Shown: positions 4,806 through 64,000 of the stretch, one piece after another | How positions within the stretch are numbered: position 1 is the stretch's first letter | Layout: each line of letters opens with the position of its first letter | Origin: Escherichia coli | GTDB lineage: Bacteria > Pseudomonadota > Gammaproteobacteria > Enterobacterales > Enterobacteriaceae | Strand: one strand, 5' to 3' | Length of the DNA: 64,000 nt | NCBI RefSeq assembly: GCF_003991155.1 | Contig: NZ_CP031293.1 | Program-made: the position numbers and the translations under genes | Notes under the pieces: generated by a model | Told to the model about the DNA's origin: nothing | Databases searched by the model: none | What the model saw: only the letters and a program-made list of their open reading frames with translations

Positions 4806-7307
4806 ATGGCCCTGATTGTGGAATTTATTTGTGAGCTACCTAACGGCGTCCATGCGCGTCCGGCAAGCCACGTTGAAACGCTGTGTAATACTTTTTCATC
4901 ACAAATTGAGTGGCATAACCTGCGCACTGACCGCAAGGGCAACGCCAAAAGCGCCCTTGCGCTGATTGGCACCGACACGCTGGCGGGCGATAACTGCCAG
5001 TTACTGATTTCCGGGGCCGACGAACAGGAAGCGCACCAGCGTTTAAGCCAATGGCTGCGCGATGAATTCCCCCACTGCGATGCGCCGCTGGCAGAAGTTA
5101 AATCTGACGAACTGGAACCACTGCCGGTTTCACTGACCAATCTGAATCCGCAAATTATCCGCGCCCGCACCGTGTGCAGCGGTAGCGCAGGCGGCATTCT
5201 GACGCCGATCTCTTCTTTAGATCTCAATGCGCTGGGTAATCTTCCCGCTGCCAAAGGCGTTGACGCCGAGCAATCCGCGCTGGAAAACGGCCTGACGCTG
5301 GTACTGAAAAACATTGAGTTTCGTCTGCTGGATAGCGACGGTGCTACCAGCGCGATTCTGGAAGCGCACCGATCCCTGGCTGGCGATACTTCCCTGCGCG
5401 AACATTTACTGGCAGGCGTCAGCGAGGGATTAAGCTGTGCCGAAGCGATTGTCGCCAGTGCACACCACTTCTGCGAAGAGTTTTCCCGTTCCAGCAGCAG
5501 CTACCTGCAAGAACGCGCCCTGGACGTACGCGACGTCTGCTTCCAGTTACTCCAGCAAATCTACGGTGAGCAACGCTTCCCGGCACCGGGCAAACTGACG
5601 CAGCCCGCCATTTGTATGGCGGATGAACTGACCCCCAGCCAGTTCCTCGAACTGGATAAAAATCACCTCAAAGGATTGTTGCTCAAAAGCGGCGGCACCA
5701 CCTCACATACGGTGATCCTTGCCCGTTCGTTCAACATTCCGACGCTGGTTGGTGTGGATATTGATGCCCTCACTCCGTGGCAGCATCAAACGATTTATAT
5801 CGACGGCAACGCTGGGGCGATTGTGGTTGAGCCAGGGGAAGCCGTAGCTCGTTATTATCAGCAGGAAGCCCGCGTACAGGATGCCCTGCGTGAGCAACAG
5901 CGAGTCTGGCTGACCCAACAAGCCCGTACCGCTGACGGTATCCGCATTGAAATTGCTGCTAACATCGCTCACTCCGTGGAAGCGCAGGCTGCATTCGGCA
6001 ATGGTGCGGAAGGCGTTGGTTTATTCCGCACTGAAATGCTCTATATGGATCGCACCAGTGCACCGGGCGAAAGCGAGCTGTACAACATTTTTTGTCAGGC
6101 GCTGGAGTCCGCCAACGGACGCAGCATTATTGTGCGCACTATGGATATTGGCGGTGACAAACCCGTTGATTATCTGAACATTCCCGCAGAGGCAAACCCG
6201 TTCCTCGGTTATCGCGCCGTGCGTATTTATGAAGAGTACGCGTCGTTATTTACCACACAACTACGGTCGATCCTGCGTGCCTCCGCTCACGGCAGCCTGA
6301 AAATCATGATCCCGATGATCTCCTCAATGGAAGAGATCTTATGGGTAAAAGAAAAACTGGCAGAAGCCAAACAGCAACTACGTAACGAACACATTCCGTT
6401 TGATGAGAAGATCCAGCTCGGCATTATGCTGGAAGTGCCGTCGGTGATGTTCATCATCGATCAATGCTGCGAAGAGATTGATTTCTTTAGTATCGGTAGT
6501 AATGACCTGACGCAATATCTGCTGGCAGTGGATCGCGATAACGCTAAGGTTACTCGTCACTATAACAGCCTGAATCCGGCATTCCTGCGGGCGCTCGATT
6601 ACGCCGTGCAGGCGGTGCATCGCCAGGGCAAATGGATTGGTCTGTGCGGTGAACTAGGAGCGAAAGGTTCCGTGCTGCCGTTGCTGGTCGGCTTAGGGCT
6701 GGATGAACTCAGCATGAGCGCACCATCAATTCCGGCGGCGAAAGCGCGGATGGCGCAACTTGATAGCCGTGAGTGCCGCAAGTTGCTCAACCAGGCAATG
6801 GCCTGCCGTACTTCGCTGGAAGTGGAACACCTGCTGGCGCAATTCCGCATGACCCAACAAGACGCACCGCTGGTCACCGCCGAGTGCATCACACTGGAAA
6901 GCGACTGGCGCAGCAAAGAAGAAGTGCTCAAAGGCATGACCGATAACCTGCTGCTGGCGGGCCGCTGTCGCTATCCGCGTAAACTGGAAGCCGACTTGTG
7001 GGCGCGCGAGGCCGTTTTCTCTACCGGTCTGGGCTTTAGTTTTGCCATTCCCCACAGCAAATCAGAACACATTGAGCAATCCACCATCAGCGTGGCGCGT
7101 CTGGCAGCGCCGGTGCGCTGGGGCGATGATGAAGCGCAATTCATCATTATGTTAACCCTGAACAAACACGCCGCGGGCGATCAACATATGCGCATTTTCT
7201 CGCGCCTCGCTCGCCGCATCATGCACGAAGAATTCCGTAACGCGCTGGTTAACGCCGCCTCTGCCGACGCTATCGCCAGCCTGCTGCAACATGAACTGGA
7301 ACTGTAA
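4806..7307 (+). CDS. ptsA: Multiphosphoryl transfer protein (HPr-like, enzyme I-like and IIA-like domains)
   Basis: 833 aa ORF; N-terminal HPr-like domain (GVHARPA), central PEP-utilising enzyme I domain ([19 protein letters not shown]), C-terminal IIA-like domain; divergent from frwC. Confidence 0.93.
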
Positions 7308-7318
7308 AAGGAAACATC

Positions 7319-7981
7319 ATGGAACTGTATCTGGACACCGCTAACGTCGCAGAAGTCGAACGTCTGGCACGCATATTCCCGATTGCCGGGGTGACAACTA
7401 ACCCGAGCATTATCGCTGCCAGCAAGGAGTCCATATGGGAAGTGCTGCCGCGTCTGCAAAAAGCGATTGGTGATGAGGGCATTCTGTTTGCTCAGACCAT
7501 GAGCCGCGACGCGCAGGGGATGGTGGAAGAAGCGAAGCGCCTGCGCGACGCCATTCCGGGCATTGTGGTGAAAATCCCGGTAACCTCTGAAGGTCTGGCA
7601 GCAATTAAAATGCTGAAGAAAGAAGGCATTACTACGCTGGGAACCGCAGTGTACAGCGCCGCGCAAGGATTACTGGCGGCGCTGGCTGGAGCCAAATACG
7701 TTGCTCCATACGTTAACCGCGTAGATGCCCAGGGCGGTGACGGCATTCGTACTGTACAGGAGTTGCAAGCGTTACTGGAAATGCATGCGCCAGAAAGCAT
7801 GGTGCTGGCTGCCAGCTTTAAAACACCACGTCAGGCGCTGGATTGTTTGCTGGCTGGATGTGAATCCATCACACTGCCCTTAGATGTAGCGCAACAAATG
7901 CTTAACACCCCTGCGGTAGAGTCAGCTATAGAGAAGTTCGAGCACGACTGGAATGCCGCATTTGGCACTACTCATCTCTAA
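7319..7981 (+). CDS. fsaB: Fructose-6-phosphate aldolase 2 (transaldolase-like)
   Basis: 220 aa ORF starting [13 protein letters not shown]; TalC/Fsa family; 11 bp after ptsA. Confidence 0.93.
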
Positions 7982-7991
7982 AGGAGTAATT

Positions 7992-9095
7992 ATGGACCGC
8001 ATTATTCAATCACCAGGTAAATACATCCAGGGCGCAGATGTAATTAATCGTCTGGGCGAGTACCTGAAGCCACTGGCGGAACGCTGGTTAGTGGTGGGTG
8101 ACAAATTTGTTTTAGGTTTTGCTCAATCCACTGTCGAGAAAAGCTTTAAAGATGCTGGACTGGTAGTAGAAATTGCGCCGTTTGGCGGTGAATGTTCGCA
8201 AAATGAGATCGACCGTCTGCGTGGCATCGCGGAGACTGCGCAGTGTGGCGCAATTCTCGGTATCGGTGGCGGAAAAACCCTCGATACTGCCAAAGCACTG
8301 GCACATTTCATGGGTGTTCCGGTAGCGATCGCACCGACTATCGCCTCTACCGACGCACCGTGCAGTGCGTTGTCTGTTATCTACACCGATGAGGGTGAGT
8401 TTGACCGCTATCTGATGTTGCCAAATAACCCGAATATGGTCATTGTCGACACCAAAATCGTCGCTGGCGCACCTGCACGTCTGTTAGCGGCGGGTATCGG
8501 CGATGCGCTGGCAACCTGGTTTGAAGCACGCGCCTGTTCCCGTAGCGGCGCGACCACCATGGCGGGCGGCAAGTGCACTCAGGCAGCGCTGGCACTGGCT
8601 GAACTGTGCTACAACACCCTGCTGGAAGAAGGCGAAAAAGCGATGCTTGCCGCCGAACAGCATGTAGTGACTCCGGCGCTGGAGCGCGTGATTGAAGCGA
8701 ACACCTATTTGAGCGGTGTTGGTTTTGAAAGCGGCGGGCTGGCGGCGGCACACGCGGTACATAACGGCCTGACCGCTATCCCGGACGCGCATCACTATTA
8801 TCATGGTGAAAAAGTGGCATTCGGTACGCTGACGCAGCTGGTTCTGGAAAACGCGCCGGTGGAGGAAATCGAAACCGTAGCTGCGCTTAGCCATGCGGTA
8901 GGTTTGCCAATAACTCTCGCTCAACTGGATATTAAAGAAGATGTCCCGGCGAAAATGCGAATTGTGGCAGAAGCGGCATGTGCAGAAGGTGAAACCATCC
9001 ACAACATGCCTGGCGGCGCAACGCCAGATCAGGTTTACGCCGCACTGCTGGTAGCTGACCAGTATGGACAACGTTTCCTGCAAGAGTGGGAATAA
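7992..9095 (+). CDS. gldA: Glycerol dehydrogenase
   Basis: 367 aa from [13 protein letters not shown]; iron-type alcohol dehydrogenase motifs ([12 protein letters not shown]); the ORF-track start at 7953 is an upstream in-frame extension overlapping fsaB. Confidence 0.93.
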
Positions 9096-9103
9096 CCTAC
9101 TCC

Positions 9104-9130
9104 AAACTCCCGGCTTGTCCGGGAGTTTGA
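9104..9130 (+). terminator. Hairpin immediately downstream of gldA (caaactcccgg-cttgt-ccgggagtttg)
   Basis: Perfect 11 bp inverted repeat 9 bp after the gldA stop; no strong T-run, so intrinsic-terminator function is uncertain. Confidence 0.5.
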
Positions 9131-9171
9131 GAGTGCAGGCAAAGTGGCTCACTCGTCACTGCGGGCATGTT

Positions 9172-9282
9172 TTTCCCCCTCGCCCTTTCAGGGAGAGGGG
9201 CGGGGTGAGGGTAAATATTCGCCCCGGAGCTGGCCTGTACCCCTCACCCTAACCCTCTCCCCAAAGGGGAGAGGGGACTGTT
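9172..9282. repeat. GC-rich imperfect palindromic intergenic repeat element (family not assigned)
   Basis: Segments gggagaggggcggggtgagggta and cccctcaccctaaccctctccccaaaggggagagggg are mutually complementary and internally palindromic; located in the gldA-yijF spacer. Confidence 0.5.
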
Positions 9283-9425
9283 CGAGCACTTTTTATACGT
9301 TATCACCCGTCTGAAACTCCCACGTTGTTCAGGAATTTTTTATCCGCTTCTGGACATTTTCTCCACAGAACAATCGTTAGCCCGGAAGGTCGAATCTGTG
9401 ACTCTTATTTTCACGGACGAAACAG

Positions 9426-10043
9426 ATGAAAGCTTCACTGGCGTTATTCAGTCTTCTGACGGTATTTACCAGTTACTCCTTAAAATCTCCCGCCGTTCCA
9501 CCAACCGTGGTACAAATCCAGGCCAACAGCAATCTTGCCATCGCAGACGGTGCCAGACAGCAAATCGGCAGCACGCTATTTTACGATCCGGCGTATGTGC
9601 AGCTTACCTATCCTGGCGGTGATGTCCCGCAAGAACGCGGCGTATGTTCCGATGTGGTGATCCGTGCATTGCGCAGCCAGAAGGTCGATTTGCAGAAACT
9701 GGTGCACGAAGATATGGCGAAGAATTTTGCTGCGTACCCGCAAAAATGGCAGTTAAAGCGCCCGGACAGCAACATCGATCACCGTCGGGTGCCTAATCTG
9801 GAAACCTGGTTTACCCGCCACGATAAAACACGCCCCACCAGCAAGAACCCCAGTGACTATCAATCGGGCGATATTGTCTCCTGGCGATTAGATAACGGGC
9901 TGGCACATATTGGGGTGGTGTCAGATGGCTTCGCCCGCGACGGTACGCCGCTGGTGATACATAACATTGGCGCAGGCGCGCAGGAAGAAGACGTGCTGTT
10001 TAGCTGGCGGATGGTGGGGCACTATCGGTATTTTGTTAAATAA
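9426..10043 (+). CDS. yijF: DUF1287-family secreted protein YijF
   Basis: 205 aa ORF with N-terminal signal peptide (MKASLALFSLLTVFTSYS); recognised as E. coli YijF; synteny. Confidence 0.88.
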   Translation: MKASLALFSLLTVFTSYSLKSPAVPPTVVQIQANSNLAIADGARQQIGSTLFYDPAYVQLTYPGGDVPQERGVCSDVVIRALRSQKVDLQKLVHEDMAKNFAAYPQKWQLKRPDSNIDHRRVPNLETWFTRHDKTRPTSKNPSDYQSGDIVSWRLDNGLAHIGVVSDGFARDGTPLVIHNIGAGAQEEDVLFSWRMVGHYRYFVK

Positions 10044-10069
10044 GCGATCGCCCCACATGAAGAAAAAAT

Positions 10070-10975
10070 TCAGATGTTTTTTACACTGACAGCTTCTTTT
10101 TTCTTACGGCTCACCAGCGCCAGTGCCAGCACAATCAGCACAATACCGCTACCTTCAACGGCCCCCGGATTCTCACCGAGCAGCCACCAGGAAAAGAGTA
10201 CGCCGCAAACGGGAACGGCCAGTGTGCTTAAGCTGGCAATACTGGCAGGCAAGTTTTTCAATACAAACAACCATAAGCTCCACGCCAGCGCTGTCGCCAG
10301 AATCGCACTGTAGGCCAGCGCCCAGAACACGGTGGGTTGCCAGTCAATTTCACGTTGCGGCACCAGTAAAGCGACCACGCTCATCACCAGCGCCGCATAC
10401 AGCATCTGCCAGGATGTTAGCGACAATAAATCCACGCGCGGATGGCGGGCATACAGACGTTTAGCAACAATCGCGCTCGCCCCCCAACTCACACCGGAGA
10501 GGATTGCCAGCATGGCGCTTTTCATCGAAGAGAAATCGAGTTGCCACGGCTGCAACACCAAAAATAAGCCGAAAGCGGCAATCAGTATCGCGAAATATTG
10601 CCCACGTCGCAGGCGTTCACCGAGAAACAACGCGGCGAAAATCACCACCCAGAACGGCATGGTATAGCTCAGGATTGCCACCTTCCCCGCTCCGCCGCTG
10701 ACCAGCGCCCACTGTGCCAGGCCGACCATCCCGCAGGTTTGTAACAGGGCAATGGCTAAGGTGTATTTAAACGGTGTCGGGCGCATTCCGCGACCACGTA
10801 ATAAAAGGACGATGAATAAAACGAGAGCGCCGAAAATGCAGCGTAAGGCGGTAAAGTCGAAGGCACCGATGTAGCTGGTGACTTGCTTCATGAAAATCCA
10901 GCTATAACTCCAGATAAGTGTGAGCACAACCAGGCCACTGATTGCCAGTGGGTTGCTCTTTCCTGCGGCAGACAT
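10070..10975 (-). CDS. yijE: EamA/DMT-family inner-membrane transporter (cystine exporter-like)
   Basis: About 301 aa polytopic membrane protein starting [17 protein letters not shown]; the ORF-track start at 11008 is an upstream extension. Confidence 0.88.
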
Positions 10976-11017
10976 GAGAGATCCAGTGTGTAGTTTTCCT
11001 GTGGACACTATACGCCG

Positions 11018-11062
11018 GTAAAGAAACTTCAGCGACTGCCTGAAAGGCAGTCGCTGAAGAAG
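11018..11062 (-). terminator. katG terminator hairpin (cttcagcgactgcc-tgaaa-ggcagtcgctgaag)
   Basis: Perfect 14 bp inverted repeat just downstream of the katG stop, in the katG-yijE spacer. Confidence 0.6.
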
Positions 11063-11068
11063 GTCAGA

Positions 11069-13303
<2,235 letters not shown>

Positions 13304-57664: not shown

Positions 57665-58509
57665 TCTTTCTGCGAATTGAGATGACGCCACTGGCTGGGC
57701 GTCATCCCGGTTTCCCGGGTAAACACCACCGAAAAATAGTTACTATCTTCAAAGCCACATTCGGTTGAAATATCACTGATTAACAGGCGGCTATGCTGGA
57801 GAAGATATTGCGCATGACACACTCTGACCTGCCGCAGATATTGATTGATGGTCATGCCAGTCTGCTGGCGAAATTGCTGACGCAAAACGCGCTCACTGCA
57901 CGATGCCTCATCACAAAAGTTATCCAGCGCAAAGGGACTTTTCAGGCTGGCCGCCAGCCGGGTAATCAGCTTATCCAGCAACGTTTCGCTGGATGTTGGC
58001 GGCAACGAATCACTGGTGTAACGATGGCGATTCAGCAACATCACCAACTGCCCGAACAGCAACTCAGCCATTTCGTTAGCAAACGGCACATGCTGACTAC
58101 TTTCATGTTCAAGCTGACCGATAATCTGCCGCGCCTGTGCCATCCCCATGCTACCTAAGCGCCAGTGTGGTTGCCCTGCGCTGGCGCTAAATCCCGGAAT
58201 CGCCCCCTGCCAGTCAAGATTCAGCTTCAGCCGCTCCGGGCAATAAATAATATTCTGCAAAACCAGATCGTTAACGGAAGCGTAGGAGTGTTTATCGTCA
58301 GCATGAATGTAAAAGAGATCGCCACGGGTAATGCGATAAGGGCGATCGTTGAGTACATGCAGACCATTACCGCGCCAGACAATCACCAGCTCACAAAAAT
58401 CATGTGTATGTTCGGCAAAGACATCTTGCGGATAACGGTCAGCCACAGCGACTGCCTGCTGGTCGCTGGCAAAAAAATCATCTTTGAGAAGTTTTAACTG
58501 ATGCGCCAC
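57661..58509 (-). CDS. rhaR: AraC-family transcriptional activator RhaR
   Basis: Stop at 57661 is firm; the start is ambiguous: a GTG start giving 282 aa ([13 protein letters not shown]) is used here, whereas the longest ORF extends to 58620 (319 aa). Confidence 0.8.
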
Positions 58510-58582
58510 CGTGGCTACCTCGGCCAGAGAACGAAGTTGATTATTCGCAATATGGCGTACAAATACGTTGAGAAGATTCGCG

Positions 58583-59419
58583 TTATTGCAGAAAACCATC
58601 CCGTCCCTGACGAATATCACGCGGTGACCAGTTAAACTCTCGGCGAAAAAGCGTCGAAAAGTGGTTACTGTCGCTGAATCCGCAGCGATAGGCGATGTCA
58701 GTAACGCTGGCCTCGCTGTGGCGTAGCAGATGTCGGGCTTTCATCAGTCGCAGGCGGTTCAGGTAACGCTGAGGCGTCAGTCCCGTTTGCTGCTTAAGCT
58801 GCCGATGTAGCGTACGCAGTGAAAGAGAAAATTGATCCGCCACGGCATCCCAATTCACCTCATCGGCAAAATGGTCCTCCAGCCAGGCCAGAAGCAAGTT
58901 GAGACGTGATGCGCTGTTTTCCAGGTTCTCCTGCAAACTGCTTTTACGCAGCAAGAGCAGTAATTGCATAAACAAGATCTCGCGACTGGCGGTCGAGGGT
59001 AAATCATTTTCCCCTTCCTGCTGTTCCATCTGTGCAACCAGCTGTCGCACCTGCTGCAATACGCTGTGGTTAACGCGCCAGTGAGACGGATACTGCCCAT
59101 CCTGCTCTTGTGGCAGCAACTGATTCAGCCCGGCGAGAAACTGAAATCGATCCGGCGAGCGATACAGCACATTGGTCAGACACAGATTATCGGTATGTTC
59201 ATACAGATGCCGATCATGATCGCGTACGAAACAGACCGTTCCACCGGTGATGGTATAGGGCTGCCCATTAAACACATGAATACCCGTGCCATGTTCGACA
59301 ATCACAATTTCATGAAAATCATGATGATGTTCAGGAAAATCCGCCTGCGGGAGCCGGGGTTCTATCGCCACGGACGCGTTACCAGACGGAAAAAAATCCA
59401 CACTATGTAATACGGTCAT
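58583..59419 (-). CDS. rhaS: AraC-family transcriptional activator RhaS
   Basis: 278 aa ORF starting [39 protein letters not shown]; C-terminal AraC HTH. Confidence 0.94.
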
Positions 59420-62432
<3,013 letters not shown>

Positions 62433-62439
62433 ACACTGC

Positions 62440-62672
62440 CGGATGCGGCACAAGTGCCTTATCCGGCCTACGGGTCGGCAATAGTTGTAGGCCTGATAAG
62501 ACGCGACAGCGTCGCATCAGGCATTGATTGCCGGATGCGGCACGAGCGCCATATCCGGCCTACGGGTCGGCAATAGTTGTAGGCCTGATAAGACGCGACA
62601 GCGTCGCATCAGGCATTGATTGCCGGATGCGGCACGAGTGCCTTATCCGGCCTACAGATCGTACATCCGGCA
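62440..62672. repeat. Tandem REP/BIME array in the rhaA-rhaD spacer (about 98 bp unit repeated)
   Basis: Unit ccggatgcggcacNagNgccNtatccggcctacgggtcggcaatagttgtaggcctgataagacgcgacagcgtcgcatcaggcattgattg occurs twice in tandem with a third partial copy. Confidence 0.8.
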
Positions 62673-62708
62673 ACAGGCACGGACGTCCAATTAACAGGAA
62701 CACAGAAC

Positions 62709-63533
62709 ATGCAAAACATTACCCAGTCCTGGTTTGTCCAGGGAATGATCAAAGCCACCACCGACGCCTGGCTGAAAGGCTGGGACGAGCGCAATGGTGG
62801 TAACCTGACGCTGCGCCTGGATGACGCCGATATCGCGCCTTATCACGGCAACTTTCATGCACAACCGCGCTATATCCCGCTCAGCCAGCCCATGCCTTTA
62901 CTGGCAAATACACCGTTTATTGTCACCGGCTCCGGCAAATTCTTCCGTAACGTCCAGCTTGATCCTGCGGCTAACTTAGGCGTCGTAAAAGTCGACAGCG
63001 ACGGCGCGGGCTACCATATTCTCTGGGGGTTAACCAACGAAGCCGTCCCGACATCCGAACTTCCGGCTCACTTTCTCTCTCATTGCGAGCGCATTAAAGC
63101 CACCAACGGTAAAGATCGGGTGATCATGCACTGCCATGCCACCAACCTGATCGCCCTTACCTACGTACTGGAAAACGACACCGCGGTCTTCACTCGCCAA
63201 CTGTGGGAAGGCAGCACCGAATGTCTGGTAGTGTTCCCGGATGGCGTCGGCATTTTGCCGTGGATGGTGCCCGGCACGGACGAAATCGGCCAGGCGACCG
63301 CACAGGAAATGCAAAAACATTCGCTGGTGTTGTGGCCCTTCCACGGCGTCTTCGGCAGCGGTCCGACACTGGATGAAACATTCGGTTTAATCGACACCGC
63401 AGAAAAATCAGCACAAGTATTAGTGAAGGTTTATTCGATGGGCGGCATGAAACAGACCATCAGTCGTGAAGAGCTGATAGCACTCGGCCAGCGTTTCGGC
63501 GTTACACCACTTGCCAGTGCGCTGGCGCTGTAA
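62709..63533 (+). CDS. rhaD: Rhamnulose-1-phosphate aldolase
   Basis: 274 aa from [27 protein letters not shown]; the ORF-track start at 62616 runs back into the REP array and is an artefact. Confidence 0.95.
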
Positions 63534-63542
63534 GGAGCAAAT

Positions 63543-63857
63543 ATGATCCGCAAAGCCTTTGTCATGCAGGTTAACCCCGACGCCCACGAAGAGTATCAGC
63601 GTCGGCATAATCCCATCTGGCCGGAACTGGAAGCAGTGTTGAAATCTCACGGTGCACATAACTACGCCATTTACCTCGACAAAGCGCGTAATCTGCTGTT
63701 TGCCACGGTAGAGATTGAATCTGAAGAACGGTGGAATGCGGTAGCCAGTACTGATGTTTGCCAACGTTGGTGGAAATATATGACCGACGTTATGCCAGCT
63801 AACCCGGATAACAGCCCAGTCAGTAGCGAGCTGCATGAAGTGTTTTACCTGCCTTAA
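63543..63857 (+). CDS. rhaM: L-rhamnose mutarotase
   Basis: 104 aa ORF starting [41 protein letters not shown]. Confidence 0.94.
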
Positions 63858-63863
63858 TGAGTT

Positions 63864-63890
63864 GCGGTGCCGGAAAATATCCAGCACCGC
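63864..63890. terminator. Bidirectional hairpin between rhaM and a convergent downstream gene
   Basis: gcggtgccggaaaatatccagcaccgc, 7 bp GC-rich stem. Confidence 0.55.
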
Positions 63891-63897
63891 GCCTTCA

Positions 63898-64000
63898 TCA
63901 GAAGAAGTATTTAAAGCGAACGCGTGCGCCGTAACGGTCATCAGTATCATCACCGTGTTTTTTATCACCGTCGCTATCCAGAATGGAGTAATACGTCCCG
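63898..64000 (-). CDS. 3' end of a convergent gene; C-terminus ...RYGARVRFKYFF suggests an outer-membrane beta-barrel protein (partial, start outside the window)
   Basis: Minus-strand frame ending at a TGA (63898-63900) translates to ...GTYYSILDSDGDKKHGDDTDDRYGARVRFKYFF*; a terminal aromatic residue with alternating pattern is typical of beta-barrel OMPs; only about 34 codons are visible. Confidence 0.4.
   Translation of the reverse strand, partial: GTYYSILDSDGDKKHGDDTDDRYGARVRFKYFF

Follow-up and report, generated by a model that had tools for sequence, protein, structure and literature searches.

RafY is the porin of raffinose plasmids (pRSD2; TCDB 1.B.15; Pfam PF16966) and belongs to the operon rafR-rafA-rafB-rafD-rafY. 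Munns et al. (2016; PMC4809568) describe a rafY homologue without rafRABD in Escherichia coli O157:H7, called rafY2, and a genome-wide association study reports rafY often without rafABD (PMC12987596). The Klebsiella pneumoniae RafY-family porin GlyP gives a fitness gain when derepressed in OmpK35/36-deficient strains (bioRxiv 10.64898/2026.03.29.715108), and lactulose induces a homologue in Salmonella (PMC13304739). The window analyzed here is a stretch of 64,000 nucleotides of E. coli DNA (contig NZ_CP031293.1), and its last 103 bp (63898..64000, minus strand) can be taken, with near certainty, as the 3' end of a RafY-family porin gene. The explanation that best accounts for the locus as a whole, and in which we place high confidence, is that the window edge cuts an intact chromosomal gene of this family encoding a 464-amino-acid (aa) precursor.

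A porin gene cut by the window edge

The plus strand over 63890-63999 reads ...cgccttcatcagaagaagtatttaaagcgaacgcg..., and the minus-strand translation of 63898-63999 is GTYYSILDSDGDKKHGDDTDDRYGARVRFKYFF, 33 residues followed by a TGA stop at 63898-63900. A first-pass annotation of the window had tentatively recognized here the C-terminus of an outer-membrane-like protein on the minus strand; the peptide it quoted is exact, and the terminal aromatic residue belongs to a motif conserved in the family. The sequence is present where it had been placed, but the frame was off by one base. Read as 63898-64000, a register that was rejected, the minus strand has stops throughout because 103 is not divisible by three; 63898-63999 gives the right register. 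Positions 63901-63999 hold porin codons 432-464, codon 431 (Leu431) has only its final base, 64000, inside the window, and a further 1292 bp of the gene lie past the edge.

Openness over 34 codons has no significance by itself and was rejected as evidence for a gene, because two further frames over 63858-64000 (143 bp) are open too. The porin 3' end is real because the sequence matches other genomes that carry the annotated gene; the Pfam PF16966 match, the structure model and the C-terminal motif described below agree with this assignment. The window is identical to NZ_AP021933.1 at 701 of 701 nt over 63300-64000, and its last 6 kb (58000-64000) recur without a difference (6001/6001) in at least 12 complete genomes, for example that of strain 2016C-3878. 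In these genomes the frame continues without interruption into an intact 1395-bp gene for a 464-aa protein, named "carbohydrate porin" in RefSeq (WP_000749944.1), which lies between rhaM and frvA and antisense to both. Followed in these identical genomes, the extension past 64000 that the first-pass annotation had proposed as a check leads to a porin and not to a cytoplasmic protein, and its reading of the peptide as the end of an outer-membrane protein is supported. At least 1000 contigs encode the exact protein, which belongs to a 90% identity cluster of 3990 sequences.

A 182-codon open reading frame (ORF) is also present at 63420-63968 on the minus strand, antisense to rhaM and extending over the region of the porin stop. 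Since none of the genomes examined has it annotated, this frame is almost certainly open by chance.

Family membership, fold model and the visible strand

The protein matches Pfam PF16966 (Porin_8, "porin-like glycoporin RafY") with 513.9 bits against a curated cut-off of 25 (E 3.1e-154), and the match is full length, spanning profile positions 1-372 of 372 and porin residues 104-464. No NCBIfam model matches the porin. The RafY family is small, with 233 clusters at 50% identity, many of which are fragments, and many distant members lack the N-terminal extension of about 95 residues. Within residues 27-54 of this extension there is a sub-threshold match to Sugarporin_N (PF11471, the maltoporin/ScrY N-terminal extension; E 0.024, 15.3 bits against a cut-off of 25.7), for which several homologues have a precomputed hit.

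Homologues of 77-82% identity are commonly carried by plasmids. One of them, on the IncF plasmid NZ_CP091039.1, is 464 aa long and 78% identical to the chromosomal porin in a gapless alignment of 464/464 residues. It follows genes for a LacI-type repressor, an alpha-galactosidase, a major facilitator superfamily (MFS) permease and a glycoside hydrolase family 32 (GH32) invertase, which is the classical raf operon layout, and through this copy the chromosomal protein is highly similar to a raffinose-operon porin. On the E. coli chromosome itself the gene is not linked to raffinose or other oligosaccharide catabolic genes, a contextual feature that does not define the family.

An AlphaFold2 monomer model, built from a 54-sequence alignment, has a mean predicted local distance difference test score (pLDDT) of 81.6, mostly above 90 in the barrel, and a predicted template modeling score of 0.71. 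It consists of a signal-peptide helix, a long helix (28-70), a disordered linker (71-97) and 16 long beta-strands (101-463), with a short hairpin additionally inside one connecting segment. A TCDB-based survey also predicts 16 strands for the RafY family, in agreement with the model (PMC4827864). Comparison scores for the model were 19.3 with OprB and 18.1 with the 18-stranded ScrY and LamB. The protein therefore combines a modeled barrel of about 16 strands with a signal peptide at its N-terminus (MKKSTLSLAIGLLLACSTGMA) and a C-terminal aromatic residue, F464. A lipoprotein reading of LLAC at residues 13-16 was considered and rejected because the cysteine is not conserved; homologues mostly have LLVAN there.

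The 33 residues visible in the window correspond in the model to the second half of strand 15 (432-440 of 427-440), a connection (441-448) and strand 16 (449-463). The acidic connection, DSDGDKKHGDDTDD, is the most variable part of the C-terminal region across homologues and should be the last extracellular loop, by analogy with porin topology in which both termini are periplasmic. In contrast to this variability, the terminal motif RYGxRVRFKYxF is conserved even among family members of only about 25% identity; residue Y462 never varies, and G455, R457, R459 and F464 each occur in at least 90% of family sequences. Residues F464, Y462, F460, V458 and A456 alternate in ...G-A-R-V-R-F-K-Y-F-F, a pattern common to 54 family members, and the C-terminus accordingly shows the terminal aromatic and the hydrophobic residues at -3, -5, -7 and -9 that are typical of substrates of the beta-barrel assembly machinery (BAM). 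Such an alternating C-terminal pattern is the beta-signal of outer-membrane proteins.

Past the window edge, two cysteines in VVCDNDCW (porin residues 393-402) fall in a low-confidence stretch of the model between strands 13 and 14. They are conserved between the chromosomal copy and the plasmid copy, and a disulfide could link them within this segment.

Distribution, neighbors and origin of the locus

Of 5426 complete E. coli genomes, 5402 match the window segment 63400-64000 through rhaD and rhaM, and 2556 of these cover it in full, including the last 103 bp. The full-length matches listed are all 100% identical and have a "carbohydrate porin" feature at the porin end. The whole porin gene with its flanks is found at a coverage of at least 80% in 2543 of the 5426 genomes (~47%). 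Intact 1395-bp alleles are present in O157:H7 (96.3% nucleotide identity) and in EC958 of sequence type 131 (ST131; 95.1%). In K-12 MG1655, rhaM and frvA are 300 bp apart, no porin is annotated, and the spacer contains no porin ORF. The comparison with K-12 downstream of rhaM therefore bears out the first-pass view that no outer-membrane-protein gene adjoins rhaM there. The suggestion of a strain-specific gene holds in that the gene is variable, but not in the sense of a single strain: this is an accessory E. coli gene. What the window edge presents is thus not an anomaly; it is an ordinary, already annotated gene, and one already known (most probably as rafY2 in O157:H7).

The interval between rhaM and fdhD is a variable region, because EC958 misses the frv operon instead of the porin. 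Three arrangements can be set side by side. K-12 has no porin and keeps frvABXR and yiiG. ST131 EC958 (L014, 1541-4764) keeps the porin, which is flanked by a truncated yiiG, and frvABXR is missing. HS30-1 (L012, 3041-4713) has lost most of the porin, frv and yiiG beside IS1A, and its porin remnant is a 75-bp segment that adjoins IS1A and whose end corresponds to 63974 in the window.

On its other side the gene converges on rhaM (L-rhamnose mutarotase, 104 aa; 63543..63857, plus strand), an ORF that is annotated in the 100% identical genomes and serves here as context only. Convergence had been noted in the first pass and is confirmed, with a 40-bp spacer between the two stops (63858..63897). 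Within the spacer lies a strong GC-rich hairpin (core 63863-63891) that can form from both strands, at -28.1 kcal/mol (z -5.1) for the minus and -21.5 kcal/mol (z -4.0) for the plus strand; none of 200 shuffled sequences folds as well. A canonical terminator between rhaM and the porin gene was rejected: a terminator consensus scan is negative there, and the hairpin is not a canonical intrinsic terminator because it has no U tract on either side. It is probably a 3'-end or terminator structure shared by both convergent genes. Although it lacks the porin, the K-12 spacer has two segments in common with the porin-bearing allele, a related hairpin directly behind rhaM and some 190 bp of sequence in front of frvA; the boundaries are approximate (MAFFT alignment). 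Farther into the rha operon, the rhaA-rhaD spacer (62419-62661) contains three tandem units with a 92-nt period, 81-88% identical, that look like elements of the repetitive extragenic palindromic/bacterial interspersed mosaic element (REP/BIME) type. The rhaA-rhaD spacer of K-12 is longer (450 bp), and that of the sister genome NZ_AP021933.1 carries an inserted IS621 transposase gene.

A porin convergent on rhaM is also found in Citrobacter, Kluyvera and Klebsiella, with Citrobacter orthologues 83-85% identical. In Klebsiella sp. B345 the porin is preceded by rafR-, rafA- and rafB-like genes; in K. grimontii a cassette of a LacI-type regulator, an MFS transporter and a beta-helix protein lies between the porin and rhaM; and in Buttiauxella a 62% identical family member ends a different oligosaccharide operon. 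Because Citrobacter, Kluyvera and Klebsiella share the rhaM-adjacent position, loss in the K-12 lineage is likelier than gain in the strain of the window, and the porin was probably ancestral at this site and lost in K-12. Judged from these arrangements, the gene is most likely the survivor of an ancestral sugar-utilization cassette beside the rha operon in Enterobacteriaceae. The simplest reading would be that E. coli, Citrobacter and Kluyvera kept the porin alone, and that K-12 and about half of E. coli lost the porin too.

The gene is under purifying selection. This follows from the ratio of nonsynonymous to synonymous substitution rates (dN/dS) against the plasmid copy, 0.16 overall and 0.11 in the barrel, and from the proportions of nonsynonymous and synonymous differences against Kluyvera (pN 0.10, with a saturated pS of 0.79), these figures being computed against the plasmid and Kluyvera copies only. 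There is no evidence that the gene has its promoter in common with plasmid rafY: the sequences preceding the E. coli, plasmid, Klebsiella and Citrobacter copies give a poor alignment, with the exceptions of some E. coli-Citrobacter similarity and the ribosome-binding region.

Exchange with plasmids has left traces of its own. Between the chromosomal copy (L001, 12499-13893, minus strand) and a plasmid copy (L003, 7001-8395), codons 241-360 are 92-97% identical in DNA, with few synonymous differences, and codons 1-120 only 53-70%, a mosaic that suggests past gene conversion between the chromosomal porin gene and plasmid rafY. The conjugative IncI-gamma/K1 plasmid CP057400.1 (L004) carries, at 5621-11584, genes for an MFS permease (rafB-like), a GH32 invertase (rafD-like) and the porin, followed by rhaM and rhaD; its porin is 100% identical to the chromosomal allele. 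Apparently, the porin gene was the site at which a plasmid raf operon recombined with chromosomal DNA, and the end of the rhamnose operon was captured in the process. The 100% identical porin is also encoded by five other plasmids, NZ_OQ534115-OQ534119.

Proposed function and comparison with known systems

It can be proposed that the precursor is exported by Sec via its N-terminal signal peptide, with a likely signal peptidase I site at GMA|KT, around residue 21, and that the C-terminal strand ...YGARVRFKYFF, visible in the window, acts as the beta-signal for insertion by BAM. The mature protein would be a 16-stranded beta-barrel, by analogy probably a trimer, whose periplasmic N-terminal coiled-coil helix (~28-70 in the model) would be connected to the barrel through a flexible linker (71-97). 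By analogy to the RafY of plasmids, this barrel may be a wide diffusion channel that speeds entry into the periplasm of di- and trisaccharides of the raffinose, sucrose, maltose and lactose type, together with other solutes, and would not be a LamB-type channel with a specific binding site. We consider it probable that the protein is such a wide, oligosaccharide-favoring diffusion channel, 16-stranded, most likely trimeric, anchored by a coiled coil and inserted by BAM through the strand seen in the window.

Several points weigh against this reading of an intact gene for a working channel. The window holds 103 bp of the gene only, and intactness in the source strain is drawn from identical genomes. 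Trimer state and pore size are taken from analogy and from a monomer model; the RafY family has no solved structure, and a PDB sequence search with the porin returned only spurious matches (E ~1, dehydroquinase). Identity to the canonical RafY of pRSD2 rests on operon context and the Pfam family name, and a literature search found no functional study, with expression or transport data, of the chromosomal E. coli porin gene. To these can be added the lack of linked catabolic genes, the roughly half of E. coli that do without the porin, and the region upstream of the gene, where one weak promoter-like site only is found, fewer than shuffled sequences give.

The short stretch inside the window would also suit a source strain that has a truncated 3' remnant only and no functional gene, as HS30-1 has with its 75 bp beside IS1A. 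This is highly improbable: the HS30-1 remnant stops at the equivalent of 63974 whereas the window matches the intact gene to 64000, every listed genome with 100% identity across the 6 kb has an intact gene, and truncation of the HS30-1 type is rare, with about 13 of some 2556 porin-end genomes lacking most of the gene. The gene is therefore taken to be, very probably, intact in the source strain. An intact gene may still be a silent relic, an orphan that is unexpressed, useless and heading for deletion as in K-12, and the absence of adjoining raf genes, the absence of the gene from ~53% of complete E. coli genomes, the IS1-mediated truncation in at least one strain and the single weak promoter-like site can all be read in that way. 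We regard such a relic as unlikely, however, since the gene is full length and intact in O157:H7, in ST131 and in the lineage of the window, the distant lineages that were examined, is under strong purifying selection relative to its orthologues (dN/dS 0.16; pN 0.10 versus pS 0.79), stands in the same orphan arrangement in Citrobacter and Kluyvera, and has an E. coli allele that was exchanged with plasmid raf operons. Yet another possibility concerns the channel itself, which could be of the sugar-specific LamB/ScrY type, an 18-stranded barrel with an internal sugar-binding track for one oligosaccharide. The RefSeq name "carbohydrate porin" would fit, as would the weak PF11471 match of the N-terminal helix (E 0.024) and the precomputed hits in homologues, the position of family members at the end of oligosaccharide operons, and a phylogenetic survey in which the RafY family falls closest to the LamB sugar porins (PMC4827864). 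This reading seems improbable, as the porin gives no match to the LamB domain (PF02264; TCDB 1.B.3) at E up to 1 and its model is not an 18-stranded barrel.

If a diffusion channel of the RafY type is accepted, wider consequences can be entertained. RafY-family porins are wide channels, and GlyP can replace lost major porins in carbapenem-resistant K. pneumoniae strains. Because GlyP can substitute for major porins, an orthologue present in roughly half of E. coli, with major pathogenic lineages among the carriers, could influence permeability and the competition for nutrients. It may be speculated, tentatively and with more doubt than confidence, that in roughly half of E. coli, O157:H7 and ST131 included, the orphan porin is functional, forms a large channel and is expressed under certain conditions. 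It could then change how permeable the outer membrane is to oligosaccharides, antibiotics, phages or colicins, as was recently shown for GlyP in K. pneumoniae, and the locus may also be an active recombination bridge to conjugative raf plasmids, over which chromosomal rha genes could pass to plasmids.

Among solved structures, the 16-stranded trimeric porins OprP (2o4v), Omp32 (1e54) and DcaP (6eus) are only 8-14% identical in sequence to the porin, and they belong to other families with other substrates (phosphate, anions and dicarboxylates). The N-terminal coiled coil has counterparts in DcaP and in the sucrose porin ScrY, whose coiled-coil extension the porin's helix resembles weakly by PF11471; ScrY and the maltoporin LamB, both 18-stranded, are alike in providing for oligosaccharide entry through the outer membrane. 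GlyP is a chromosomal RafY-family alternative porin whose overexpression compensates for major-porin loss (bioRxiv 10.64898/2026.03.29.715108); its gene, unlike the solitary one of E. coli, lies within a permease-hydrolase-porin operon under LacI-type regulation. The rafY2 gene of O157:H7, noted above (PMC4809568), is most probably the same locus, an equivalence that would agree with the intact O157:H7 allele between rhaM and frvA. The RafY of raffinose plasmids shares with the chromosomal porin the full-length Pfam family, the 464-aa precursor length, the signal peptide, N-terminal helix and barrel, and the C-terminal motif RFKYxF. Unlike plasmid RafY, the chromosomal porin is an orphan between rhaM and frvA with no rafR, rafA, rafB or rafD adjoining. 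The N-terminal third of the two proteins is only 37-63% identical and their last inter-strand connection differs strongly. The chromosomal porin is nearer to its chromosomal orthologues in Citrobacter and Kluyvera (83-85%) than to plasmid RafY.
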